Shown: positions 2,768 through 64,000, numbered from the stretch's first letter. The stretch is 64,000 nt of DNA from an uncultured Actinomycetes bacterium (GCA_963724745.1 CAVRVU010000002.1:94714-158713), one strand, 5' to 3'. Notes: generated by a model not told the origin, from the letters alone. Numbers and translations: made by a program.

Positions 2768-4387
2768 ATGCCGACCAAGAGCCGTTTCCTCAGCCGCCGT
2801 GTACCTCTGATCGTGGCCTTCGCCGCGCTAGCCCTCGCGCTTTCCGCGACGCAGGCGCTGGCCGCCCGCTACGCCTACACGGGCAACTACGTCGACAACA
2901 CGGTCTCGGTGATCGATACGGCCACCAACCAGGTGGTCGGCAACCCGATCCCGGTGGGCGAGTCGCCGTCGACGCTGGCGGTCACCCCGAACGGCAAAAC
3001 CCTCTACGTCGGCGACGAAAGCGACGACAACCTGAGGGCCATCGATACCCAGACCAATCAGGTCATCACCACGCTCCCGCTCACCTACGAAGGGGTCGAT
3101 TACGACGCCTCGGTGATCGCGATCTCCCCTGACGGCAAGACGGCCTACGTCAGCAGCTACGACCTCGAAGGCGTCTTCGTCATCGATACCCAGACCAACC
3201 AAATCGTCGGCTCTCCGATCCCCATCGGCGGCAACACGTGGGGCGTTGCCTTCTCCCCGGACGGGAGCGCGGCCTATGTCACCAATTACGACACGGACGC
3301 GGTCGACGTCATCGACACCGCCACCAGGCAGGTCGTCGGCGCGATCCCGGCCGGCGAAGACCCGGTCAATCTCGTCTTCTCGCCCAATGGCAAAACCGCT
3401 TATGTCGTCAACGAAGGAACCAACCTGATCCCCGGAACGGTCTCGGTCATCGACACCGCGACCAGGCAGGTGGTGGGGGACCCGATCACGGTTGGCTTCG
3501 ACGCCTGGGGGATCGCCCTGACGCCCAATGGGAGCAAGCTCTACGTCAGCAACACCGACGACAGCAACGTCTCGGTTATCGACACGGTCACTCGCCAGGT
3601 GGTCGGCGCGATCCCGGTCGGCGCAGCGCCTTACGAAATGGCCATGACGCCGGATGGCAGATTCGTCTACGTCGCCAATTACGAAGGCGAAGCAGAAGGC
3701 AAAGGCGTAACCGTCATCAATACCCAGACGGGTCAGACGAGCGACGTCGACGTCACCGGCGGGCCATGGCAGATCGCGATCGCCCCCGACCAGTCGCCGG
3801 TCGCCTCCTTCACCGCCGCGGCCGCCAAGAAGAACCCTCTGCAAATCGGAGTCAGCGGCGGCGCCGCCGACTCCGACGGCACGGTCGCCAGCTTCAACTG
3901 GAGCTTCGGCGACGGAACGACCGCCCCCAACGGCGGCCCGGCCCTCGTCCACATCTACGCCAAAGCCGGCAGCTACACCGTCGGCCTGACCGCGACCGAC
4001 AACGAGGGCTGCTCGGCGAGCATGGTGTTCACCGGCCGCACGGCGCTCTGCAGCGGAGCTGCCGCCGCGGCGCAGTCGATCACCGTCAAGGCCCCGAACA
4101 ACTTCAAGTTCGGCAAGCTGATCCGGAACACCAAAAAGGGAACCGCAAAGCTGAAGGTCAAGGTCCCCTACGCCGGCAAGCTCACCCTCACCGGCAAGAA
4201 GGTGAGGAAGGTCAAGCGCAGCGCCAAGAAGGCGGGCACGGTGACCCTCAACATCCGCCCGAAGCCGAAGGCCAAGCAGACCCTGAACGCCAAGGGCAGT
4301 CTCAAGACCAAGATCAAGGTCACGTTCAAGCCGACCGGCGGCAAGGGCAAGACCAAGGGTCGGAGCCTGAAGCTGATCAAGCACTAA
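2768..4387 (+). CDS. Secreted YVTN-type beta-propeller repeat protein with a PKD domain and a Lys-rich C-terminal tail
   Basis: Signal peptide VPLIVAFAALALALSATQALA. Repeated ~40-aa units (VSVIDTATNQVVG.IPVG..P..LA.TPNGKTLYV). PKD-like FNWSFGDGTTA...YTVGLTATDNEG. Confidence 0.85.
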   Translation: MPTKSRFLSRRVPLIVAFAALALALSATQALAARYAYTGNYVDNTVSVIDTATNQVVGNPIPVGESPSTLAVTPNGKTLYVGDESDDNLRAIDTQTNQVITTLPLTYEGVDYDASVIAISPDGKTAYVSSYDLEGVFVIDTQTNQIVGSPIPIGGNTWGVAFSPDGSAAYVTNYDTDAVDVIDTATRQVVGAIPAGEDPVNLVFSPNGKTAYVVNEGTNLIPGTVSVIDTATRQVVGDPITVGFDAWGIALTPNGSKLYVSNTDDSNVSVIDTVTRQVVGAIPVGAAPYEMAMTPDGRFVYVANYEGEAEGKGVTVINTQTGQTSDVDVTGGPWQIAIAPDQSPVASFTAAAAKKNPLQIGVSGGAADSDGTVASFNWSFGDGTTAPNGGPALVHIYAKAGSYTVGLTATDNEGCSASMVFTGRTALCSGAAAAAQSITVKAPNNFKFGKLIRNTKKGTAKLKVKVPYAGKLTLTGKKVRKVKRSAKKAGTVTLNIRPKPKAKQTLNAKGSLKTKIKVTFKPTGGKGKTKGRSLKLIKH

Positions 4388-4397
4388 TCGGGATAGA

Positions 4398-4431
4398 CGA
4401 TTAATCGTTTAGACATTAAGACGATTAATCG
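4398..4431. promoter_or_regulatory. Two copies of the palindrome CGATTAATCG (24-bp spacing) in the AT-rich leader of the Fic gene. Candidate operator, with a TAAAAT -10-like box at 4434-4439.
   Basis: AGACGATTAATCG is read at 4395-4407 and 4419-4431, with a half-site CTAATCG at 4384-4390. The GTG start at 4446 lies about 7 nt after TAAAAT, so the transcript may be leaderless. Confidence 0.5.
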
Positions 4432-4445
4432 GCTAAAATGATGGG

Positions 4446-5511
4446 GTGATCTTCCAGGCTCCTGAGATCAGTAGGCCGCTTCGGGAGAAGCTCGACGCGC
4501 TCGGCGACCTGCGGAAACAACTTGGCGCTGCGGTTTCCACCCGTTCGCGGTGGATCGGCTCGCTGCGTCGTCAGGTGCGAGCTTCGTCGATCGAGGGCTC
4601 CACCTCGATCGAGGGGTTCAGCGTCTCCCCCGACGAAGCCTTGGCTCTGACCAGTGGCCGCCGGGTCCCGGATCAGGGCGACGCCGACCAGCAGGCGGTC
4701 GCTTCCTACGCGCGGGCGATGGACCACGTCGGGACGATGGCGATCGATCCTTCGTTCAGGTGGCTGGACCGCGTAATCCTCGACCTCCACTTCGAGGCCT
4801 GCTACTTCCAGCGCGACATCGACCCGGGTCTGTGGCGAACTGGGCCGATCGGCGTCACCGGGCCCGATGGATCGCTTGAGTACCTGGGCCCTGACGCCGA
4901 CCAAGTCGTTCCCTTGATGACCGAGGTCGTGGGCTGGCTAGCCGAAGATCAACCGGGGGTGGACGTGGTTGTGAAGGCGGCGATGGCACACCTGAACGTC
5001 ACCTCAGTTCATCCCTTCCGGGATGGCAATGGGCGCATCTCGCGAATCGTCCAGTCGCTGGTACTTGCCCGCGGCGGCCTCGGCTCTCCCGAGTTCTTCT
5101 CGATCGAGGAGTACCTCGGCGAGCACACCGGCGAGTACTACGCCGTGCTCCGTGAGGCACAGGGCGGCAGCTACCAGCCGGGGCGCGACGCGACCGGCTG
5201 GGTCTCCTTCTGCCTCGAGGCGCACATCGCCCAGGCCCGGCAGCGGCTGGATCAGATCGAGCAGGCAGCGGCGCGCTGGCAGCGTCTGGAAGATCTCGCT
5301 GGTCGGCGAGGCTGGCCGGACCGGATCGTGATCGCCCTCGAGCAGAGCCTGCTGGGCGGGACCGACCGCGGCAAGTACGCCGAGGAGGCCGACGTCTCCC
5401 CTGCCACCGCCAGCGCCGACTTCCGCCGCCTGCTCGACGCTGGCCTCGTCGATCAGCTCGGGCGCGCCAGAGCTTCCAGCTACACCGCCAGCGAGGCCCT
5501 GCGCTCGGCGA

Positions 5512-5540
<29 letters not shown>
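4446..5540 (+). CDS. Fic/DOC family protein (AMPylase-type)
   Basis: Fic motif [13 protein letters not shown]-terminal [10 protein letters not shown] helix typical of Fic_N. C-terminal winged-helix-like tail. Confidence 0.85.
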
Positions 5541-7765
<2,225 letters not shown>

Positions 7766-42099: not shown

Positions 42100-42320
42100 G
42101 AGAGCCGACGCTGAAGAATGTGCATTCCCCAGGCCGTCACCGGCTTCTAACTGGCTAGCTGCCGGGTTTAGTGCAGGGGTGGAGAATCAGGCGTTCATCC
42201 GAAATTGACTAGTGCCGCAGATCCAGCTCCCCGTTCAGGCGGTTGCTGCCTGACAAAAGCGGGGTCGGCCATGCCACCTCCACGGGACCCCAACCGCCCA
42301 CTGCCATCAACTTCAAGAGG

Positions 42321-42394
42321 GGTGGCTGACGGGATTCGAACCCGCGACCGCCGCGACCACAACGCGGAGCTCTACCAGCTGAGCTACAGCCACC
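42321..42394 (-). tRNA. tRNA-His (GTG)
   Basis: The reverse complement folds as G(-1) GTGGCTG TA GCTC AGCTGGTA GAGC T CCGCG TTGTGGT CGCGG CGGTC GCGGG TTCGAAT CCCGT CAGCCAC C. CCA is not encoded. Confidence 0.92.
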
Positions 42395-45859: not shown

Positions 45860-46654
45860 CTAACGGTTGAGGCGAGCGAGGAGATCGCTCGTCATCGGGG
45901 TTGATTTGAAGAGGCCGCGCCTGGCGCCGGCGCGCATCTGGCGGCGGATCCCCCGCTCGACCAGGCCTTTGGGGACGAAGCGGAGCGCCGCGTAGGCGCG
46001 AGCGGCGCGCCTGGTCGTCGCGAGATCGCGGGTGGGCTTGCCGTAGAGGGCGCGGACGATCGTCTCGACCGCCGCGCTCAGCGGCTCCGGCGGCACCATC
46101 CCCTCGAGGCCGATGCCGGCGCTCTGGCTGGCGTCGTGGATCGGGGTGCGGATGTAGCCGGGGTAGACGGTGGTGACTGTGATCTCGTCGCCGACCTCCG
46201 AGCGCAGTTGCTCGGAGTAGCCGACGACGCCGCGCTTGCTGGCGCCGTAGGCGGTGGCGAAGGGCACCGCGATGTGGGCGAGGCCGGAGGAGATGTTGAC
46301 GACGCGGCCGTGGGAGGTGCGCAGCGCCGGCAGCGCCGCGGCCGTCGCCCGCCAGGTGCCGAGCAGGTTGACGTCGATGACGCGGAGCGCGTCGGGGCCG
46401 GGCCGTTCGGCGGCGCTCTGCGGCAGGCCGATGCCGGCGCAGTTGACGAGCGCGTCGAGCCCGCCCCCCAGCCGCTTCACCGCGGCGGCAACGCCGGCGT
46501 CGACGGAAGACTGGTCGGTGACGTCGCAGACGACGATGTCGTCCTCGCCCTTGAGGTCGAGCCCGACGACCTCGGCGCCGCGCTCACGCAGCGCCTTGGC
46601 GGTCGCCTCGCCGATGCCGCTGGCGGCGCCGGTGATGATCACGCGCTTGCTCAC
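45860..46654 (-). CDS. Short-chain dehydrogenase/reductase (classical SDR)
   Basis: VIITGAASGIG. NISSGLAH...YGASK catalytic motif. Confidence 0.85.
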   Translation of the reverse strand: MSKRVIITGAASGIGEATAKALRERGAEVVGLDLKGEDDIVVCDVTDQSSVDAGVAAAVKRLGGGLDALVNCAGIGLPQSAAERPGPDALRVIDVNLLGTWRATAAALPALRTSHGRVVNISSGLAHIAVPFATAYGASKRGVVGYSEQLRSEVGDEITVTTVYPGYIRTPIHDASQSAGIGLEGMVPPEPLSAAVETIVRALYGKPTRDLATTRRAARAYAALRFVPKGLVERGIRRQMRAGARRGLFKSTPMTSDLLARLNR

Positions 46655-55435: not shown

Positions 55436-56266
55436 ATGCCATGGGGTCGGCATAACGGGAGCTCCCGTGCGACCAGGGCGATCATCGCCCTGGTCGTCGC
55501 GACCGCCTGCCTCGGCAGCGTCGCCTACGCCGCTACTCGTTCCGACGTCATGCGGCTGAAGTCGGGTAAAGCCGGGTCTCCCGCCCGCAGCAAGAGCCAG
55601 GCGCCGCCGCGGCCGCGCTTCATCGAAGTGCCGCCCGCGACCGTCGTTGGCGACGGTTACCAGTTCCGCTTTCACGTCACGGCGCCGCCGACGCAGCCCG
55701 GCACCGGGCGTCCAGAGCCCAGCCACCCCGCTCCGCCTGCGACCAAGTGGCGGCGCTTCCAGTGCCGACTCGACGGAGGCGATTGGGACGGCTGTCCCTC
55801 GCCTTTCGTCCTCCCCCGGCTCAACTCGGGCGATCACGCCTTCGCCGTCCGCGCCCTCAGCCCACGGGGCCGGCCGGGTCCAGCGGCGCACTACCGATGG
55901 TCCCAGCTCGAGCCGAAGGAGCTGACGATCGAGCCGCAAGGGGGCTCGCTCGAGGAGCTGATGCCGGGCGCCCCTCCCCAGCCGCTGCCGGTCCGGATCG
56001 GCAACCCCAACCCGGTGCCGATCGAAGTCACCAGCATCAGCGTCGCCGTCGCCCCGCAGCACCCGGACTGCCCCGGCGACCCGAACTTCGCCGTCACCGC
56101 CGCGAGCCTGACGCCGGCGGCGCCGCTGACGCTCCCCCCGGGGGGAGCCGTCAGCCTGCCGAGCACGGCCGCGCCCACCGTGGCGCTGCGCGAACTGCCG
56201 ATCGACCAGAACGCTTGCCAGGGCACCAGCGTCGACCTGCTCTTCAGCGGTGAGGCCCGCGGATGA
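55436..56266 (+). CDS. Membrane-anchored or secreted protein with a Cys-pair Ig-like domain and a domain related to the upstream gene
   Basis: TM IIALVVATACLGSVAYA. FQCRLDGGDWDGCPSPFVLPRLNSGDHAFAVRA. C-terminal DQNACQGTSVDLLFSG parallels the gene at 54947. 4-nt overlap with the next gene. Confidence 0.6.
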   Translation: MPWGRHNGSSRATRAIIALVVATACLGSVAYAATRSDVMRLKSGKAGSPARSKSQAPPRPRFIEVPPATVVGDGYQFRFHVTAPPTQPGTGRPEPSHPAPPATKWRRFQCRLDGGDWDGCPSPFVLPRLNSGDHAFAVRALSPRGRPGPAAHYRWSQLEPKELTIEPQGGSLEELMPGAPPQPLPVRIGNPNPVPIEVTSISVAVAPQHPDCPGDPNFAVTAASLTPAAPLTLPPGGAVSLPSTAAPTVALRELPIDQNACQGTSVDLLFSGEARG

Positions 56267-58128
56267 AGCGCGCCCGCCTCAGCGGCGTCGCGGGTTTCGC
56301 GGTGGCCGTGGCGGCCGTCCTCCTCGTCGGCAGCGCGGTCGCCTACTTCTCTGCCAACGGCACCGGCAACGCCGCCGCCGCGGTCACGAAACTGACCGCG
56401 CCGACGATCACCGCCGCGACCCCGGCCTCGGGTGGGGCCGTCACCCTCACCTGGAGCGCAGTAACGCCCCCCGGCGAAGGCCCGGTGAGCTACTACGTCA
56501 CCCGCGACGGCGGCGAACCAGCCGGCAACTGTCCCGGCAAACCGGCACCGGGGGCCGTCACAACCTGCGTCGACGGCGCCGTTCCGATCGGCGAACACAC
56601 CTATGAATTGACCGCCGTCTGGCGCACCTGGGAAGCGACCAGCAGCGGCAAAACGGCGAAAATCACGGTCGGAACCGTCGTCGCCTTCACCGTCGCGGCC
56701 AGCGCGGCGAGCATCACCGCCGGCGGCTCGAGCAACCTGACGATTACCGCCAAGGACGAAAAAAACAACACCGTCACCACCTACACCGGCTCGCACTCGC
56801 TGATCTTCTCCGGCGCCAACGCCGCCCCCAGCGGCACCAAACCGACCGTCTCCAACAGCTCAGGGACTGCGACCAACTTCGGCACCGCGACGGCGATCAG
56901 TTTCACCACCGGCGTCGCCACCATCTCCTCGACCAAAAACGGCGTGCTCCGGCTCTACCAGTCCGGTACTGCCAGCATCGTCGCCACCGAGGGGTCGATC
57001 ACCACCCCCAGCCCCCCGACGATCACCGTCAGCGCCGCCGCCGCCTCCAAATTCGTCCTCGCGGCGGACTCGGCGACGCCGGGGGCGGGCGTCGTCGACA
57101 ACCTGACGACCACGGCCCAGGACACCTACGGCAACACCGCGACCTCATACACCGGCGTCCACAGCCTCGTCTTCTCCGGCGCCTCCGCCAGCCCCAACGG
57201 CAACACTCCGACGGTCAGCGACTCGACCGGCGCCGACGTCGCCTTCGGCGCAGCCACCGGGGTCGAATTCACCGCCGGAGTGGCCAAAGCCAGCGAAGCC
57301 GACGGCGGCGGGATGAAGCTCTACAAGAGCGGCTCGACCCCCGTCAAAGCGACCGAAGGGGCGATCACCACCCCGACGGCGGTGACCGTCACCGTGGCGG
57401 CCGCAACGGCGACCAAGCTCGTCCTCAGCTCCTCGACGCTGACGCCGGTGGCGGCGACCGGCTTCAACCTGACGACGACCGCCCAGGACACCTACGGCAA
57501 CACCGCCACCGGATACACCGGCTCGAAGAACATCACCTTCGCCGGCGCCACGGCGAGCCCCAGCGGGGCCCTGCCGACGGTGGTCAACGCCGCCGGCACC
57601 GTGGTCAACTTCGGGACGGCGACGGCGCTCACCTTCACCAACGGCGTCGCCACGCCGGCCTCCTCGAAAAACGGCTTCACCAAACTGAACAAGGTCGAGA
57701 CGGCCAACGTCACCGCCAGCGACGGCACGATCTCGACCGCGGCCGCCGTGGTGCTGACGGTCTCTGCCGGCGCCGCCAACCGCGTCGCCCTGCTCGAAGT
57801 CAAAGCCAGCGCCGGGACGATCGGCTCCCCCTGCTACTTCAGCTGCGCCATCACCTCGCTCGGCAACTCCGGAACCGTCAAAGCAAAGGCCGCGATCAGC
57901 GACAGCGTCGGCAACGTCATCTCCAACCTCGCCGCCAAAACGGTGACGATCACCGCCACCGCCGGCGGCACCGTCACCGGCTCCCCGCTGACCACCGCAG
58001 CCACCGGCCCGGCGATCTCCACCGCCGAATTCACCTACACCGCGCCCGCGACCGGCAGCTTCAGCAACCACACGATCACCGCCGCCTCGACCGGCTACAC
58101 CAGCGCCACCGCAACCGTGAGCAAATAG
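56263..58128 (+). CDS. Secreted protein with an alternate-type signal peptide (AVAYFSANGTG), an FN3-like domain and at least 4 Big/invasin-like Ig repeats
   Basis: FAVAVAAVLLVGSAVAYFSANGTGNA. Reiterated ...LTTTAQDTYGNTAT.YTG...FSGA.A.P.G..PTV... units. Confidence 0.7.
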   Translation: MKRARLSGVAGFAVAVAAVLLVGSAVAYFSANGTGNAAAAVTKLTAPTITAATPASGGAVTLTWSAVTPPGEGPVSYYVTRDGGEPAGNCPGKPAPGAVTTCVDGAVPIGEHTYELTAVWRTWEATSSGKTAKITVGTVVAFTVAASAASITAGGSSNLTITAKDEKNNTVTTYTGSHSLIFSGANAAPSGTKPTVSNSSGTATNFGTATAISFTTGVATISSTKNGVLRLYQSGTASIVATEGSITTPSPPTITVSAAAASKFVLAADSATPGAGVVDNLTTTAQDTYGNTATSYTGVHSLVFSGASASPNGNTPTVSDSTGADVAFGAATGVEFTAGVAKASEADGGGMKLYKSGSTPVKATEGAITTPTAVTVTVAAATATKLVLSSSTLTPVAATGFNLTTTAQDTYGNTATGYTGSKNITFAGATASPSGALPTVVNAAGTVVNFGTATALTFTNGVATPASSKNGFTKLNKVETANVTASDGTISTAAAVVLTVSAGAANRVALLEVKASAGTIGSPCYFSCAITSLGNSGTVKAKAAISDSVGNVISNLAAKTVTITATAGGTVTGSPLTTAATGPAISTAEFTYTAPATGSFSNHTITAASTGYTSATATVSK

Positions 58129-58165
58129 CCGGCGCAGGGTCGCGGCTGGAGATCCGAAGGACCGG

Positions 58166-58585
58166 CTAGGAGGAGCCGGAGCGCGAATGGGCGGTGAACG
58201 GCACGACCTTTCGCGTGCAGCCCGGCAGCCCCGTGGTTTCAAGGCTGACGATCTGACCCTTCACCTTGCCGGGCGCTACGAAGTCGCCTTCGAATTCGAG
58301 GCGGTTGGGAATCACCGCACCGCCAAAGTGCCCGTCTTCGTCAATCGCCAACCGAGCTTTCCGCAGCCGGACACTCTGCTTCCCGCAAACCACCTCGCGG
58401 AAGGTCACCTTGATGTTGATCACCGCCCCGCCGTCGACGCCGAAGTAGACGTAGAAGCCTTGGTTGGTCTTCCCCTTCCAGCCACCTTCGGCCGGCCCGG
58501 CTTCCGCGGCATTGGCCAGACCCCCACCGCAGAGCAACAGCAGGCAGGCCGCCAGGAGGAGCCGAGAGCTTGTGATGCGTTGCAT
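58166..58585 (-). CDS. Secreted hypothetical protein (about 139 aa)
   Basis: Signal peptide MQRITSSRLLLAACLLLLCGGGLANA from the ATG at 58585. The 156-aa ORF in the track starts further upstream. Confidence 0.6.
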   Translation of the reverse strand: MQRITSSRLLLAACLLLLCGGGLANAAEAGPAEGGWKGKTNQGFYVYFGVDGGAVINIKVTFREVVCGKQSVRLRKARLAIDEDGHFGGAVIPNRLEFEGDFVAPGKVKGQIVSLETTGLPGCTRKVVPFTAHSRSGSS

Positions 58586-58667
58586 GGCAGACAATCCTAA
58601 GTCTCTACTCCGCAAACGTGGAGAAAGAGTGAGCAAACCTCAGCCGACGTCGATCTGATCGCCGAGG

Positions 58668-58772
58668 GCCGAAAGGTGTCTAGCAGGGCGAATCTGGCCC
58701 GATAGAGCCGATCAGGTCCAAGGAGTTCGGCTGAGTTCGCTGGAGTCGGGGACCAATTTCGGGCCAAATTTT
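58668..58772. repeat. Island end-repeat, copy 1 (no tRNA fragment attached)
   Basis: AAGGTGTCTAGCAGGGCGAATCTGGCCCGATAGAGCCGATCAGGTCCAAGGAGTTCGGCTGAGTTCGCTGGAGTCGGGGACCAATTTCGGGCCAAATT aligns with copies 2 and 3 with scattered substitutions. Confidence 0.8.
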
Positions 58773-58779
58773 CCTAGCC

Positions 58780-59234
58780 ACCAGAGGATTGGGGTGGCCG
58801 CCTAACGAGCGTCGCGCATCGCCAAGATGAAGGCCCGATCGGAGGCGTCATAGCGATAGAGCAGGAGCATCCACGACCAAGGTCCGAGGACGAACGTGCT
58901 CGACGCGTCGCAGACCGTCCTGACCCCTGACGAGAAGCTGGCGGGCGAAGGCAGAAACGGGATAGGGCCTGGCCTGTACGGGACGCCGACAGCTCGACGT
59001 GCCAGCGCCACCGAACCCGTGCGAGCTCAAAACGCGGTGTGTCCGGGCGGAGTCGAGTCCTCCATCGATGGGTCGACCTCACGGGTTCGGTCCCGCAAAT
59101 CGGGATGGGTCAGAAAGGCGTCCACCAACGCCCTCGGTCCCCCGATGCAAGTCCACTCGTCGTCCCACGAGATAGCCAAGCCACGCCCGACCGTCCTTGC
59201 TGCGCCAGGGCCCTACCTTTTTATCGCCCGCCAT
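58780..59234 (-). pseudogene. Probable tyrosine-integrase remnant (N-terminal arm-type segment, then frame-broken and truncated)
   Basis: MAGDKKVGPWRSKDGRAWLGYLV resembles actinobacterial integrase N-termini (..R.KDGRW.g.v). It starts 25 nt downstream of the tRNA-Arg fragment. Only about 450 bp remain, split over several frames. Confidence 0.35.
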
Positions 59235-59258
59235 GGTGCGGACAGTAGTGCGACGTAA

Positions 59259-59300
59259 CGCCCCCGGCTGGATTCGAACCAGCGACCGTCGGATTAGAAG
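59259..59300 (-). other. tRNA-Arg(UCU) 3' fragment (anticodon loop to discriminator), att-like
   Basis: The reverse complement reads CTTCTAA TCCGA CGGTC GCTGG TTCGAAT CCAGC CGGGGGC G. No matching 5' half (GCCCCCG..., D arm) is present upstream. Confidence 0.75.
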
Positions 59301-59408
59301 TTCAGCCGGAAGGTGTCTGACGGCCCGAATCTGGCCTGATAGAGCCAATCACGTCCAAGGAGTTCGGCTGAGTTCGTTGGAGTTGGGGACCAATTTCGGG
59401 ACCAAGTT
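59301..59408. repeat. Island end-repeat, copy 2 (abuts the tRNA fragment at the anticodon loop)
   Basis: Aligns with 58668..58772 and 60829..60937. Confidence 0.8.
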
Positions 59409-59436
59409 CCATTGGCCTAGGAGCCCGATTGAGGTT

Positions 59437-60750
59437 CTATTCGAGATCAACCCGTATATCCGCCTGACCGCTCTTGGCGCGTCTTGCTTTACGCGCCCGC
59501 CAGATGGCGCCTGGGTTCAGGACTGCGGGCATTAGCAAGGCGACGTTCATCCACGCCGCCGCAACTAACGCCAACCAAATGTCTTCTAGTTCCTCAATCG
59601 AGACTAGAGCTACCAGCGATCCGGCCGCCAGATAAGCGAGCAGCGCCGACCAAATCAGTATCGCGCGCGCGCCCACTACAAGTTGAGCAGCCAGAGATCC
59701 GCGACCTGGCTGGGCCACAAGAGCAGATAGCAAACCCGGCCCCGCGAGCAACACAGTTGCTGCAGCGTCCGATGCGGATTGCATCGCTTCAAGGTGGCAA
59801 AGACCCGCCGTGAGCATCGCGGCAACCAAAGTCGCGGTCGCCAACACACCAAGCGTATAGCTCCTGTCTGGCGCTAGATCAACAGCGAGCATTACCAAGG
59901 AACGGCTGCGGACGTGCTTAGGCGAGAGTCGGACAGCAGAAGTTCTCCCAGGTCCAGCAAACCCGTCTACTTCCGGCTTCTCGGCAAGCTCCTGATCCTC
60001 ATCGTCGACAAGGAGGAGAGCCGAGGATAGGGAGGCACCATCGGGCGCGCGAACAACAAATTCCGATGACCCCGCCGAAACAGGTGAAGACATGGCAATC
60101 CACACTGACGAAGAGGTCCAACCTAAAGTCCGCGAGATCTCCGAGCTGGGCCGATGGACCCTTTTCATCGTGTCCGCGACTTCGAACGAAAGGCTTCTAT
60201 GAGACATGTCGTTCGTAGGAACCTCAACAAGCAACGGATAAGTCCATACCAGTGCCCGCGCCAACGGATCCTCATCGTCGAAGGGTGGATCCGGCAAAGC
60301 TGCAATCTCCTTTAGAAACCTTTCAGAATCCGCTGGGTCGTAGAGAGCAAGTCCGCTCACAAGAGCGACCATCTCCTCACTCAGCTTCGGAGTTGGCCGA
60401 GAGGCAAGCAGTGCCAAAGCCGCGAGTTGCATGCTCTGCGTTCGAGGCAACGTCGGTAAGCGCTTGCCAGTCTCGTCAAACACGGACAGCATCTGCGGAG
60501 ACAGATGCTTGTCTATGTCAGCGACCGGCAAATAGACATATGGCTTCTCCTGCACAAGCCCCGCGATCCTTCGTAACGAAAAATCAATCTGGGTCTTGCG
60601 GATCAATTGGGTAGCGCTCACCCAAGAAAAGTCGGCGCGCTGCGCCAAGATCCAACTAGGTCTTTCCCTCAATAGCCCAAGGAGAACTTTGGCCCCTTCT
60701 GGACCCCCAGCAGTTTCAAGCACTTGCGTTGCGTCTCTTTCGAGAGGCAC
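59437..60750 (-). CDS. Hypothetical protein (437 aa): ~300-aa soluble N-terminal region plus a C-terminal bundle of about 4 TM helices
   Basis: Intact ORF starting 37 nt downstream of tRNA fragment 2. TM segments LGVLATATLVAAMLTAGL, ATVLLAGPGLLSALVA, AILIWSALLAYLAAGSLVALV and IWLALVAAAWMNVALLMPAVL. No family recognised. Confidence 0.6.
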   Translation of the reverse strand: MPLERDATQVLETAGGPEGAKVLLGLLRERPSWILAQRADFSWVSATQLIRKTQIDFSLRRIAGLVQEKPYVYLPVADIDKHLSPQMLSVFDETGKRLPTLPRTQSMQLAALALLASRPTPKLSEEMVALVSGLALYDPADSERFLKEIAALPDPPFDDEDPLARALVWTYPLLVEVPTNDMSHRSLSFEVADTMKRVHRPSSEISRTLGWTSSSVWIAMSSPVSAGSSEFVVRAPDGASLSSALLLVDDEDQELAEKPEVDGFAGPGRTSAVRLSPKHVRSRSLVMLAVDLAPDRSYTLGVLATATLVAAMLTAGLCHLEAMQSASDAAATVLLAGPGLLSALVAQPGRGSLAAQLVVGARAILIWSALLAYLAAGSLVALVSIEELEDIWLALVAAAWMNVALLMPAVLNPGAIWRARKARRAKSGQADIRVDLE

Positions 60751-60786
60751 CCCTAGAAGCTAATCGAGTCGGATCGCGAATTTGAG

Positions 60787-60828
60787 CGCCCCTGGCAGGA
60801 TTCGAACCTGCGCGCTTCGGATTAGAAG
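60787..60828 (-). other. Second tRNA-Arg(UCU) 3' fragment with a different T arm and acceptor sequence, att-like
   Basis: The reverse complement reads CTTCTAA TCCGA AGCGC GCAGG TTCGAAT CCTGC CAGGGGC G. There is again no 5' half. Confidence 0.75.
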
Positions 60829-60937
60829 TTCAGCCGGAAGGTGTCTAGTAGGGCGAATCTGGCCTGATAGAGCCGACCAACGTCCAAGGAGTTCGGCTGA
60901 GTTCGTTCGAGTTGGGGACTAATTTCGGGACCAAGTT
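60829..60937. repeat. Island end-repeat, copy 3
   Basis: Aligns with copies 1 and 2. Identity with copy 2 continues into the anticodon-loop part of the tRNA fragment. Confidence 0.8.
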
Positions 60938-61041
60938 TTTGCTTCATCGTCAAGCCGGACAGCCAGCCACGAGAGGTAGCTACCACGCTGAGGCCCAGCA
61001 CATGCAGGGAAATGCCATCTTTGCGGGAAAGGAACTGAGCG

Positions 61042-61539
61042 ATGGAGGACATCTCCCTGCTCGCAACTGAGTCCCTCCTCTACGGCGTGTTGGCCCTACA
61101 GGCAGCGGCCCTTCTCCTCCTAATCATCCTCGTCGCTTACGTCTCCCCCCTCTCCGGCCAACTCATACGGCTGCCGGAAAACGTTCTGAAGACCCTGAAG
61201 GGCTCTCTCGACCTCGAGCCGGTCCACAGCAGGCTGGAGGAGATCGAGGTCGCATCAACTCGTGCCGCAGGCAACGTCACGAGGCTCGACGACCAGCTGA
61301 GAACCAGAGCTGACCTCGAAAACAAAGTGGGGGTACTTCAAACCCTTTTTGGGACCGTCGTGGGGCTCGCTGGAGCTGTGGGAGTGGACTGGGCCATTCA
61401 TGGAGGGTCGATACTGAGCTTGGACAGCTGGGTCCTTCGGCTCGCGATCGTCCTCGTGCCCTGCATCTTTGTTGCTGTGGTCGTGCCTCGGAAGGTCTAC
61501 AACGTGCTGTACCGGCGCGACGGAGGCCAGGCAATCTAG
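61042..61539 (+). CDS. Hypothetical membrane protein (165 aa): N-terminal TM, coiled-coil, C-terminal TM pair
   Basis: LLYGVLALQAAALLLLIILVAYV. TVVGLAGAVGVDWAI. LRLAIVLVPCIFVAVVV. Confidence 0.5.
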   Translation: MEDISLLATESLLYGVLALQAAALLLLIILVAYVSPLSGQLIRLPENVLKTLKGSLDLEPVHSRLEEIEVASTRAAGNVTRLDDQLRTRADLENKVGVLQTLFGTVVGLAGAVGVDWAIHGGSILSLDSWVLRLAIVLVPCIFVAVVVPRKVYNVLYRRDGGQAI

Positions 61540-61601
61540 CCTGGCTCGGGACCAAGTTCTAGGCGGGATCCGTTGGAAGGATCGCCTGGTTCTCGCTTCG
61601 A

Positions 61602-62942
61602 TTATGAGGACGAGGAGCGAACGGCGTCAATGAACTTGAGTAGCACGGACAGGTTCTCATCGCTTAGCTTCGTGTCGTCGCCCTTGTGATCTTCGCCAGG
61701 GTCGCCGACGAACATGCGCTCGATGAACTCCTTGCGAACCGTGTTCCTCTCCCCTTCGGGCAGTGGCTCGGAGAACGGCTTGAAAGCAACCATCTGCATA
61801 TAGAGGCGACGGGCGCGTTGCTCGCGGCGGCGATGTTGGCCGGATTGCTCCGCCGCGTAACCGGCGATGCCGAGCAGGAGCGTGACTGCCGTGATTTTGG
61901 CGACGATCAGCGAGGCGCTGCCGTTTCCTGCTCCCAGAAGGGCGAGGGCTACGGCTAGGATGGCCACAACGGCAGCGGCGGTGCCCATTCTGATCGCGTT
62001 GCGCCGCCACTGGTCGGCTTCTTCCTTCTGTTCCCCGGCCTCCGTTTTGAAAGCGCCAGCAGTGGTTGACGTGGCGGCGGTGTCAACCATGTCAATGGCT
62101 TCCTGTTTCTTCTCAGAGAGGAAGTCCATGACCTCTTTGCTCTTGTGTTCGAGGTTGGCGACCGCCGTGTCCGCTTCGGTTTTGGCTTCGCTCTGAGCGT
62201 CGGCACCTGAGGTTTTTAATCCCTCTATGGCCTCCTCGGCTTTGGTGGCCAATCCCTGTTTGATCTCATCGAACTGCGTGTTGCGGGTGTCCTGCTCCGA
62301 TTTGAACTGCGTTTCGAAGCTGTCAATGGACTGCTGGACACGGGCGCGCTCGGCCTCGGCCTCGGTCCTCAACGTGTCGAGCTGGCCTTCCAGCTCTTTG
62401 ACCCGCTCCTCGGCAGTCGCCTTCATCGAGTCCGAGGTTTGAGCCGCTTGCTCCTGCAGCTGGTTCAACTGCCCTTGCAGGTTGCTGGCCTGCTGTTGGA
62501 GCTGGCGAGTCTTCTCGCTTGATGCTTCGCCAAGCTGGGCGGCTGCTTTTCTAGCGTCAGTTTTCGCCCAAACCCCAATGGCAGGTGCCATCCGTAGCGA
62601 CCGATTGAGCAGCGCTTCAACGCCGGACTGAATCGTCGGCAACTGTTCGAAGTCGGTGTTTTCCTTGAATGGCGTCAGGGCCGAGCTGATCTGCTGAACC
62701 GCGTCGTTCAGCTCGTTCAACATTTGTGGCGTGAGCAAGGCCGTATCGGCGCTGGCCAGTAAAGCGCCGACGAACTCAAGGGCGGGTTCAAGACGGGGAA
62801 GCGCGGCTTGTGGATCGTGCTCGCGCGCCGCCTCCAGCAGCTCGGCAGGGAGATCCGCGACCTGCTGCCTCAACTGCTTCAAGTTCTCCTGAACCGGATG
62901 CTCGCTGAAAGCGATGCTGTATTGCGACTGCGCCTTGGCCAT
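61602..62942 (-). CDS. Hypothetical protein (446 aa): helical N-domain, long Gln/Glu-rich coiled-coil, two TM helices, ~90-aa C-terminal cytoplasmic domain
   Basis: Intact ORF. TRQLQQQASNLQGQLNQLQEQAAQ...ELEGQLDTLRTEAEAERARVQQ. TM segments AAAVVAILAVALALLGA and IVAKITAVTLLLGIAGYA. Confidence 0.6.
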   Translation of the reverse strand: MAKAQSQYSIAFSEHPVQENLKQLRQQVADLPAELLEAAREHDPQAALPRLEPALEFVGALLASADTALLTPQMLNELNDAVQQISSALTPFKENTDFEQLPTIQSGVEALLNRSLRMAPAIGVWAKTDARKAAAQLGEASSEKTRQLQQQASNLQGQLNQLQEQAAQTSDSMKATAEERVKELEGQLDTLRTEAEAERARVQQSIDSFETQFKSEQDTRNTQFDEIKQGLATKAEEAIEGLKTSGADAQSEAKTEADTAVANLEHKSKEVMDFLSEKKQEAIDMVDTAATSTTAGAFKTEAGEQKEEADQWRRNAIRMGTAAAVVAILAVALALLGAGNGSASLIVAKITAVTLLLGIAGYAAEQSGQHRRREQRARRLYMQMVAFKPFSEPLPEGERNTVRKEFIERMFVGDPGEDHKGDDTKLSDENLSVLLKFIDAVRSSSS

Positions 62943-62953
62943 GTGAACGGAGG

Positions 62954-63187
62954 CTACGACTCGTCGTCTTCGACCATGCGGGTGGCCACTTTAGTCCCGG
63001 GCTTCGCGTAGCCAACCACCACGGCTGCATAGTTGAAGCCGTCCCCGCTGGGCGCATGACTGAACGCGACGGATGGTGGGCCGTCCGAAGACCAGTGTGC
63101 GACAGCCTCCCCTAGCTTCAAGGTGAACTCCTCCAGGTCGTCGCTCTGGACGACGTTGACGCCCATCTGCACCTCGCGCAAATCCAT
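62954..63187 (-). CDS. Small hypothetical protein (77 aa)
   Basis: ORF from the ATG at 63187. Its stop lies 11 nt before the downstream start at 62942. The track ORF extends to 63334 but overlaps the upstream gene. Confidence 0.45.
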   Translation of the reverse strand: MDLREVQMGVNVVQSDDLEEFTLKLGEAVAHWSSDGPPSVAFSHAPSGDGFNYAAVVVGYAKPGTKVATRMVEDDES

Positions 63188-63224
63188 CACCCCAGAGTAC
63201 GAGCGGTGGCAGACAGACGCCTTC

Positions 63225-63957
63225 TCATGCACCAGGGGGAGTCGGTGGCTTCTGGGAATTCGGGGGCGGTTGAAGATTGAAGGACTCGACATGCCGAGCC
63301 GGGCGATTCGTTGCCTCAACCCACTCCGGGTCAACGGAAAAAAGGTCAGGCGAAGCCATCTGCGTTGGCGGCTTCGTCTGGGCCTTCAGTTCCTCGATCC
63401 GCGCCTTGATCTGATCGAGGTCGTATGCAATGGGAATCTGCTGGGCCAGCGGACCTGATTTTCCCTCCCAGCGACGATTGCCACCGCCGGTAAATGCCAC
63501 AGGGCGGACCGGCCCGTCTATTGGGTCAATCAGGTGAGCTAGCTGGCCGACCCGTGCATTCACTTTCAGTGGGACCCCATCTGGCTCCACGACAACCGGC
63601 TCCTCCAAAGGAACCTCGATTCGACAGGCGAGCAGAATCGACCCGCCGCCGGGAGCTTCGTTCCCCGTATCGACCAAGAACTCCCCAGCCAACATGCTGA
63701 ACGACGACGTTCCTACCGCCGGTGTTGGTCACCATCACGTAGAGGTGGAGGTCGTCGAATTTCGGCGGGGAATCGTTCGTCGAGAAGTAGCGCCAGCCGT
63801 GGTCAACTTCGATGCGGATTCGTCGCGCCAGCACCTCGCGGCGGATGGCGATCGCAGTACCGCTCGACCCCACCAGGGCCGCGTAATAGGTCAGCGCGTC
63901 AGGCATAGGCCGCCAAGCTCCATTAGCACGTCTATGGCCCCCCTTTCTCCTCGGCAT
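63225..63957 (-). pseudogene. Hypothetical protein (about 230-245 aa), frameshifted as assembled at the C4 run 63683-63686. First gene of the 63957-61602 operon.
   Basis: ORF 63526..63957 reads to ...NVVVQHVGW. The text continues (E)FLVDTGNEAPGGGSILLACRIEV... in ORF 63225..63695. The ATG at 63906 is an alternative start. Confidence 0.5.
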
Positions 63958-64000
63958 TTGCCACCGCGACCATCGACACGTCCAGTGCTGCAGCGATGCC

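Follow-up and report, generated by a model that had tools for sequence, protein, structure and literature searches.

Near the right-hand end of a 64,000-nt stretch of DNA from an uncultured Actinomycetes bacterium (GCA_963724745.1, CAVRVU010000002.1:94714-158713), which was analysed as a whole and is called here the window, several small units lie in a row, separated by copies of a repeat of about 105 nt and by 3' parts of a tRNA-Arg(UCU) gene. The region is probably the distal part of an island built by successive integrations into that tRNA gene, and related arrays are found in other soil bacteria. Positions are counted from the first letter of the window, and related loci carry numbers prefixed with L. 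The features are the following, where ORF stands for open reading frame:

58157..58667, minus strand: distal island end, about 510 bp missing from the syntenic locus L008; GC 0.63.
58166-58585: lipoprotein-like ORF with a signal peptide plus Cys and no Pfam match.
58668..58772, minus strand: repeat copy A (putative attP P arm) without tRNA piece; arm site 58749-58756 intact, the second degenerate; GAACTC twice at 58723-58738.
58773..59258, minus strand: degraded toxin-antitoxin cassette; ParE-like C-terminus at 58805-58894; ORF start at 59234.
59259..59300, minus strand: tRNA-Arg(UCU) 3' part B, putative displaced attB half; 42 nt, identical to the intact genes of relatives.
59301..59409, minus strand: repeat copy B (putative P arm; repeat 59305-59409 plus TGAA linker); TTGGTCCC at 59386-59393 and 59398-59405; GAACTC twice at 59360-59375.
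59410..60786, minus strand: integrase-less unit U437; single ORF 59437-60750, 437 aa, with C-terminal membrane segments and no family match.
60787..60828, minus strand: variant tRNA-Arg(UCU) 3' part C; compensatory change in the T stem, G-to-A in the acceptor.
60829..60939, minus strand: repeat copy C (putative P arm of the rightmost element; repeat 60833-60939 plus linker); arm sites 60915-60922 (TTAGTCCC) and 60927-60934; GAACTC twice at 60889-60904.
60940..64000, minus strand: putative youngest element, cargo and backbone end, continuing past the window; GC 0.61.
61042-61539, plus strand: membrane protein ORF of the rightmost element.
61602-62942, minus strand: coiled-coil membrane protein ORF of the rightmost element.
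62954-63187 and 63225-63695, minus strand: ORFs of the rightmost element.
From 63932: XRE-type HTH gene that runs off the window and is followed by a 95-aa gene in L001.

The three repeat copies share a mutual identity of 86-87%, and their invariant 23-mer, GAACTCAGCCGAACTCCTTGGAC, matches three times in the window against zero matches expected by chance; no further copies were found in the rest of the window. Each of the pieces B and C comprises the CTTCTAA anticodon loop, the 3' anticodon stem, the variable loop, the T arm, the 3' acceptor strand and the discriminator, and is joined to its repeat by a 4-nt TGAA linker (read in tRNA sense). A first-pass annotation of the sequence had described two such 42-nt pieces with differing T arms, each preceded by the same repeat and followed within 25-37 nt by a gene start, together with a third repeat copy lacking the tRNA piece. 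All of this was recovered: both pieces are present, the preceding repeats are the minus-strand copies B and C, ORFs begin 24 and 36 nt past the pieces, and copy A is the one without a tRNA piece. The pieces also lack a 5' half, as it had said, and neither ARAGORN nor Rfam finds a tRNA-Arg in the window.

Piece B is 100% identical (43/43), from anticodon loop to discriminator, to the intact tRNA-Arg(UCU) of L053 and L082. Piece C deviates from the canonical 3' part of tRNA-Arg at 6 of its 42 positions (86.7% identity over 45 nt), including a compensatory change in the T stem, from GCTGG/CCAGC to GCAGG/CCTGC, and a G-to-A change in the acceptor strand that would mispair with GCCCCCG. This variant occurs in none of the 16 intact tRNA-Arg genes of related loci. 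The tRNA-like pieces are attachment (att) scars and not pseudogenes of a second tRNA. In the same 16 loci the 5' halves of the intact tRNA-Arg fall into two D-loop classes and the 3' halves are nearly all identical, a pattern that would follow from homogenisation of the gene between species by the 3' halves that elements bring in.

The GC content of the island is 0.57-0.63 versus 0.68-0.69 in the chromosome, and the closest relative of each of the three window repeats is a copy in another genome, not another copy within the window. Synteny with L008 (78% over 2.5 kb) restarts at window position 58156, and in L008 the same 621-aa chromosomal gene directly follows the last tRNA piece; the island therefore includes the lipoprotein ORF at 58166-58585. 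The first-pass annotation was right in reading an accretion island that continues beyond 64 kb, but it placed the left edge at 58,668 and this edge moves to about 58157. The whole region from there rightwards is horizontally acquired. No att scar is left on the chromosomal side of 58157-58667. The neighbouring gene at 56263-58128, in which a 366-nt domain repeat occurs three times in tandem, encodes a 621-aa secreted protein without a Pfam match, and it is a conserved chromosomal neighbour of the tRNA-Arg island, present also in L008 and L011.

The ORF that starts after piece B had been taken for an integrase N-terminus. This assignment has to be abandoned, because the ORF is interrupted by stops and shows no tblastn similarity to the family integrases, while positions 58805-58894 encode the C-terminal 31 residues of a toxin resembling ParE, with 74% identity to an intact gene of 97 aa found just upstream of the repeat in other arrays. 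Relatives of this gene were found by tblastx and tblastn in L019, L030, L020, L051 and others, and one family member has a ParE_toxin Pfam match. The ORF is a degraded ParE-type toxin cassette.

On the right side, an independent Logan contig of 5.4 kb (L001) is 100% identical to window positions 59272-64000, breaks inside piece B and extends the sequence by 660 nt; with this identity the junction at piece C is not a binning artefact. Positions 63960-64000 and the L001 extension (to ~64659) are 88% identical over 700 bp to the module of a 95-aa protein and an XRE regulator in the complete element L053, and thus the rightmost unit is an integrase-type element. No tyrosine integrase was found in 58000-64000 or in the 660-nt extension; in L053 the int gene lies 3.5 kb beyond the module shared with the window. 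We predict xis, int, the P' arm and the tRNA-Arg gene about 4 kb or more past the L001 extension (~64660). A metagenome scan for the right flank of the window returned only one relative, 72% identical and without a tRNA end, and at most 23% of the words of the window's right end were present in the run index.

The middle unit, U437, allows a direct comparison with another genome. Positions 2044-3613 of L082 correspond to window positions 60829-59260 at 97.2% identity, and the match starts exactly at the anticodon loop and stops at the end of the downstream piece. In L082 the order is alpha/beta-hydrolase gene, intact tRNA-Arg(UCU) and then, directly, the 437-aa gene, the repeat and the tRNA piece, so that the unit stands immediately behind the intact tRNA gene; beyond this block, the two sequences are unrelated on both sides. 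L082 is the state before the rightmost element inserted. U437 (~59260-60829) is also the only part of 58000-64000 covered at an identity of at least 93% in four other soil metagenomes. It is flanked by att sites (piece C on one side, repeat B plus piece B on the other), carries no recombinase or transfer genes, and shows no similarity to int or xis, its lone ORF having no family match. Two distant homologues of the 437-aa protein (L083, L084) were considered as a guide to the unit and were uninformative, since they occur in unrelated contexts without repeats. Further along L082, downstream of the tRNA piece of the unit, a large serine recombinase gene and a 500-aa Replic_Relax gene (3553-6793) belong to a different integrative element that occupies the same array.

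The exact 23-mer was found in 75 stretches from roughly 60 species of Solirubrobacterales, nearly all of them soil metagenome-assembled genomes. A profile of the repeat detected 150 copies in 77 stretches (the 75 with the 23-mer, L077 and the window), all in one orientation and none inverted; as many as four copies lie within 8 kb, and the median distance between copies is 1.38 kb. A tRNA 3' part starting at the anticodon loop follows about 130 of the roughly 139 complete copies. It derives from tRNA-Met(CAU) in 85 cases, from tRNA-Arg(UCU) in 36, from tRNA-Thr(CGU) in a few, and from a fourth class in others. In every one of the 29 loci where the cognate intact tRNA gene is visible, it is on the same strand, at a distance of 0.65-7.5 kb upstream, and an intact tRNA is likewise found upstream in L078, L079, L080 and L082. 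For 75 of 85 repeat copies, taking all arrays together, the closest relative is in another genome, which argues for separate acquisition of the units and against their duplication in place.

The fourth class (L002, L044, L054, L068 and, decayed, L036) diverges immediately downstream of the 23-mer and terminates with a CGGGG/CCCCG T arm plus GTAGCGGTA; neither ARAGORN nor Rfam assigned its target RNA gene in L002, L044, L054 or L068. In L003 (7120-7320, oriented), a tRNA-Met piece, a partial repeat and a tRNA-Arg piece form a hybrid junction within a Met array, which suggests cross-talk between Arg-type and Met-type elements.

Complete elements reveal the likely role of the repeat. In L053 (Arg type, 7.4 kb), the tRNA-Arg gene is followed by a 60-nt spacer, TTGGTCCCCAATTGGTCCC, a 386-aa tyrosine integrase (PF00589) and an excisionase (HTH_17, TIGR01764), and then by Replic_Relax, RHH, the 95-aa protein, the XRE regulator, cargo, the 105-nt repeat, which opens with TTGGTCCCGAAATTGGTCCCC, and the displaced tRNA-Arg part. 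L078 has the same layout at tRNA-Met in 10.8 kb, its integrase being 85% identical to the Arg-type one. L011 is a 4.2-kb copy in decay, in which the Replic_Relax gene is truncated and one stretch holds no genes. L079, L080 and L081 begin in the same way, with tRNA, arm and int, and have a TrwC relaxase. In the repeat, a pair of TTGGTCCC motifs lies ~85-105 nt before the anticodon loop (in 124 of the copies hit by the profile), and in L053, L011, L078, L079, L080 and L081 a second pair lies ~60-80 nt past the tRNA end. This 8-nt motif, found in two copies to either side of the core at a distance of about 100 bp, points to an attP architecture of the lambda type in which the repeat is the P arm. 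The repeat also contains a GAACTC-N4-GAACTC pair that is absent from the P' arm, and this makes it a candidate excisionase site.

Several loci contain other recombinases. In L023 (1594-2990, oriented), a 411-aa integrase with 44% identity to the family is encoded in the direction of a tRNA-Met piece that has no 105-nt repeat in front of it, which points to a second attP architecture on the same core. In L025 (2589-4690, oriented), two adjoining tyrosine-recombinase genes interrupt the HEPN gene of a cassette and represent an unrelated nested mobile element. A match to the Rfam ALIL pseudoknot, a frameshift signal of the IS3 family, in L068 (5116-5233; 52 bits, gathering score 50) indicates an insertion sequence near the array.

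Most of the units carry no integrase. The bodies of the 100 complete units that we delimited have a median length of 1.47 kb, and 62 of the 100 contain one or two genes. Their 240 proteins form 144 clusters, among which RHH/ParE, HicAB, HEPN/nucleotidyltransferase and DUF2442-type pairs recur; a SET-domain protein, large surface proteins and a methyltransferase are further cargo. Where the position of an integrase-bearing unit is known, it adjoins the tRNA gene. A P'-like TTGGTCCC pair after the tRNA piece is kept in a few integrase-less Met units (L059 598, L066 5867 and L070 6306, oriented), which include a HicAB cassette, and these units could be independently excisable. The integrase-less cassettes appear to be the main form of this element family across an abundant uncultured soil order.

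With these data we conclude, with good confidence, that the segment running from ~58157 past 64000 forms the distal portion of an accretion island at the tRNA-Arg(UCU) gene of a Solirubrobacterales bacterium and that the repeat is an attP arm. Each unit would once have been a circle whose attachment site carried, in this order, the 105-bp arm, the tRNA 3' part and the unit body. A lambda-type tyrosine integrase would swap strands within the 7-nt anticodon loop, so that the tRNA part of the incoming unit restores the gene and the resident 3' part is displaced downstream, behind the 105-bp arm of the unit. The P arm would present two arm-type TTGGTCCC sites ~100 bp from the core, and the P' arm a second pair ~100 bp on the other side, just before int. 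Repeated rounds would stack the units with the youngest beside the tRNA gene, and read from the tRNA side the stack in the window would consist of the far end of an integrase-type element, U437, the decayed ParE toxin-antitoxin unit and the remnant with the lipoprotein gene. Which tRNA is targeted (Arg, Met or Thr) would depend mainly on the tRNA part present in attP. The claim of successive integrations into tRNA-Arg(UCU) thus gains from L053, L078 and L011, which show the layout it predicts, and from the break of L082 at the anticodon loop, and the placement of the youngest element and the intact tRNA gene to the right is supported by the related loci with a visible cognate gene, their presence in this genome being a prediction.

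How the integrase-less units travel is a more evenly balanced question, and we give cis-mobilization, the reading that we favour, about an even chance. An integrase-bearing element may use any downstream arm plus fragment as its attR and carry along the units in between; units without a P' arm would in this way be delivered to a new tRNA gene and left behind when the element excises alone. Under cis-mobilization the window would be the coupled state and L082 the uncoupled one. The two array contexts of U437 and its lone presence in four metagenomes are indirect hints of movement with an integrase-bearing neighbour. A wider and frankly tentative proposal, possible but not what we would expect, is that of a lineage-wide, tRNA-anchored cassette system functionally parallel to integrons, in which hundreds of one- or two-gene cassettes, each with a 105-bp arm and a tRNA half, would be actively shuffled between genomes by one abundant family of lambda-type integrases and retargeted among Arg, Met and Thr by swapping the tRNA half of attP.

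The strongest alternative, which we nevertheless judge unlikely, is that all units were once complete elements and that the small ones are immobile deletion remnants, the repeat being conserved through recent insertion. Decay is visible in the L011 element and, in the window, in the ParE unit and copy A; the terminal copies that adjoin the chromosome score lower against the repeat profile, and the P' arm is missing from almost all integrase-less units. However, gradual loss should leave partial genes, and a tblastn search with the family integrase, xis and Replic_Relax (E < 0.1) gave no match in the units of the window, nor any, int or xis remnants included, in the ~100 integrase-less units. 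The unit nearest to the tRNA gene, expected to be the youngest of its array, has no integrase in 28 of 29 loci. U437 is 97% identical in another array with homology ending at the att cores, and is found alone in four metagenomes. Moreover, nearly every column of the first ~62 nt of the repeat is at least 90% conserved with no codon periodicity, and this stretch is near-invariant over about 60 species, in Arg and Met types alike. Lacking integrase remnants, most units look like cis-mobilizable cassettes and not like decayed elements, and the term degraded elements used in the first-pass annotation probably misdescribes units that were integrase-less from the outset.

It is improbable, more so than decay, that the arrays are an integron-like platform whose cassettes excise and insert individually through an integrase acting in trans, the tRNA gene serving as an attI-like site. 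The size of the units, their gene number and their toxin-antitoxin-rich cargo do resemble chromosomal integron arrays, integrase-less units lie directly at the tRNA gene, and the integrase family is abundant in the same soils (3623 matches at E <= 1e-30, the best 120 clusters being all at least 80% identical). Nevertheless, the P' pair present in all complete elements is kept in only about 3 of ~100 integrase-less units, so that a lambda-type intasome would be one arm short. The genes of the units are of mixed orientation (133 versus 107), no attC-like conserved hairpin is found, and the family integrase scores 65.7 bits against the integron-integrase model TIGR02249, whose cutoff is 265. The delivery and later departure of an integrase-bearing element would give the same pattern.

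Very little speaks for the repeat and tRNA piece as a functional RNA gene, such as a split or chimeric tRNA or a regulatory RNA. Strong conservation of non-coding sequence fused to a tRNA 3' half that can fold would suit such a gene, but the repeat has no Rfam match at E <= 1, and in 98 distinct copies RNAalifold finds no consensus structure above shuffled controls on either strand (-2.1 versus -1.4 +/- 1.4, and -10.2 versus -6.6 +/- 3.5). No matching 5' half exists and the pieces decay freely, while the motif recurs beyond the core in complete elements, as expected for arm sites bound by protein. The least probable reading, a dispersed tRNA-derived repeat resembling a short interspersed nuclear element or a miniature inverted-repeat transposable element, which would also fuse a tRNA-related piece to a conserved non-coding repeat in many copies in a lineage, is excluded by the 23-mer occurring at only one or two loci per complete chromosome, all tRNA-linked, with copies co-oriented downstream of the cognate tRNA whose 3' part they bear, none inverted or scattered and none elsewhere in the window; the genome-wide dispersal of the fragment-plus-repeat unit that the first-pass annotation had named as contrary evidence is thus not seen.

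Several points weigh against the accretion island and the mobility of its units as read here. The intact tRNA-Arg, P' arm and integrase predicted for this genome lie outside the window, and their presence is deduced from synteny. A tRNA piece is missing at copy A and a terminal scar at the oldest unit, so that the left end requires a deletion that was not observed. Piece C differs at 6 of 42 positions, yet the adjoining 1.5 kb is only 2.8% off L082. The TTGGTCCC motifs are candidate Int arm sites and the GAACTC motifs candidate Xis sites, judged from position and repetition only. The related loci were gathered through the exact 23-mer, as 8-kb pieces, and their genes were called with a heuristic of our own based on GC at third codon positions. 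No excised circle, empty site in the same population or recombination activity was observed.

Elsewhere in the window, tRNA-His at 42319-42393 is confirmed by Rfam, and a 95-nt tRNA-Ala(cgc) called by ARAGORN at 45985-46079 is probably a false positive, with no Rfam tRNA support and a GC-rich, coding appearance.

That an integrating element restores the tRNA gene, and that the displaced fragment marks its far end, is an established principle (PMC4383910). As in the islands collected by Islander-type searches, in the complete elements here an intact tRNA gene and a co-oriented displaced 3' fragment stand at the island ends with the gene restored, the crossover is in the anticodon loop (sublocation 'A'), and int and xis lie beside the tRNA. 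That island finder rejects candidates below 2 kb or without integrase, and arrays of three or more made up 4 of its 3919 islands (PMC4383910). In contrast, the units described here are far below the 2-kb floor and mostly integrase-less, with up to four within 8 kb, and a single arm sequence is used with three or more tRNA targets; owing to their small size and missing integrase, pipelines of the Islander style reject them. Very small, integrase-less, tRNA-anchored cassettes are therefore a class discarded by the length and integrase filters of island finders. With lambda-type attP sites the complete elements share repeated arm-type sites ~100 bp on both sides of the core.

The tandem islands at ssrA of Dehalococcoides, some of them without an integration module and proposed to be cis-mobilizable, depend on a serine recombinase (PMC3146451). 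Many of them also lie in tandem downstream of one small-RNA gene, and each terminates in a direct repeat of the 3' end of this gene, next to a conserved motif. In that system a 20-bp repeat, a 15-bp motif, a T-loop crossover and large islands with rdhA cargo are found, whereas here there are a tyrosine recombinase, a 105-bp arm, an anticodon-loop crossover and units of ~1.5 kb (PMC3146451). No paper on such arrays in Solirubrobacterales was found.

Chromosomal integrons also consist of arrays of one- or two-gene cassettes with a conserved recombination site, a toxin-antitoxin-rich cargo and a tyrosine recombinase. Our arrays are not integrons: there is no IntI-type integrase and no folded attC, genes occur in both orientations, insertion duplicates a tRNA half, and the integrase is borne by an element and not fixed beside the array. 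If the units are mobile, they would provide a second route, besides integrons, to ordered arrays of toxin-antitoxin, restriction-modification and surface-protein genes. The system would also offer a compact integrase that might be retargeted by changing the attP core.

For ICESt1 and ICESt3 of Streptococcus thermophilus, Pavlovic (2004, cited in PMC3146451) reportedly described cis-mobilizable elements (CIMEs) and their accretion-mobilization, with mobilization said to have been shown experimentally. Those CIMEs are likewise att-flanked segments free of recombination genes, in tandem with an integrase-bearing element and proposed to move with it. They differ in that the target is the 3' end of a protein gene and in that one or two CIMEs occur and no long arrays, and the evidence on our units comes from sequence comparison. 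In actinomycete elements of the pSAM2 type, a tyrosine integrase and Xis lie beside a tRNA gene and the identity block runs from the anticodon loop to the 3' end. The elements found here share with pSAM2 the actinobacterial host, int and Xis at a tRNA gene, this identity block and a small module with a replication or relaxase gene (Replic_Relax, TrwC). Unlike pSAM2, they have no FtsK/Tra-type translocase seen in L053 or L078, measure 4-11 kb, and are outnumbered by integrase-less satellites. The island itself is of a known kind; what is new is that one conserved arm is combined with several tRNA targets and mostly tiny, integrase-less units.

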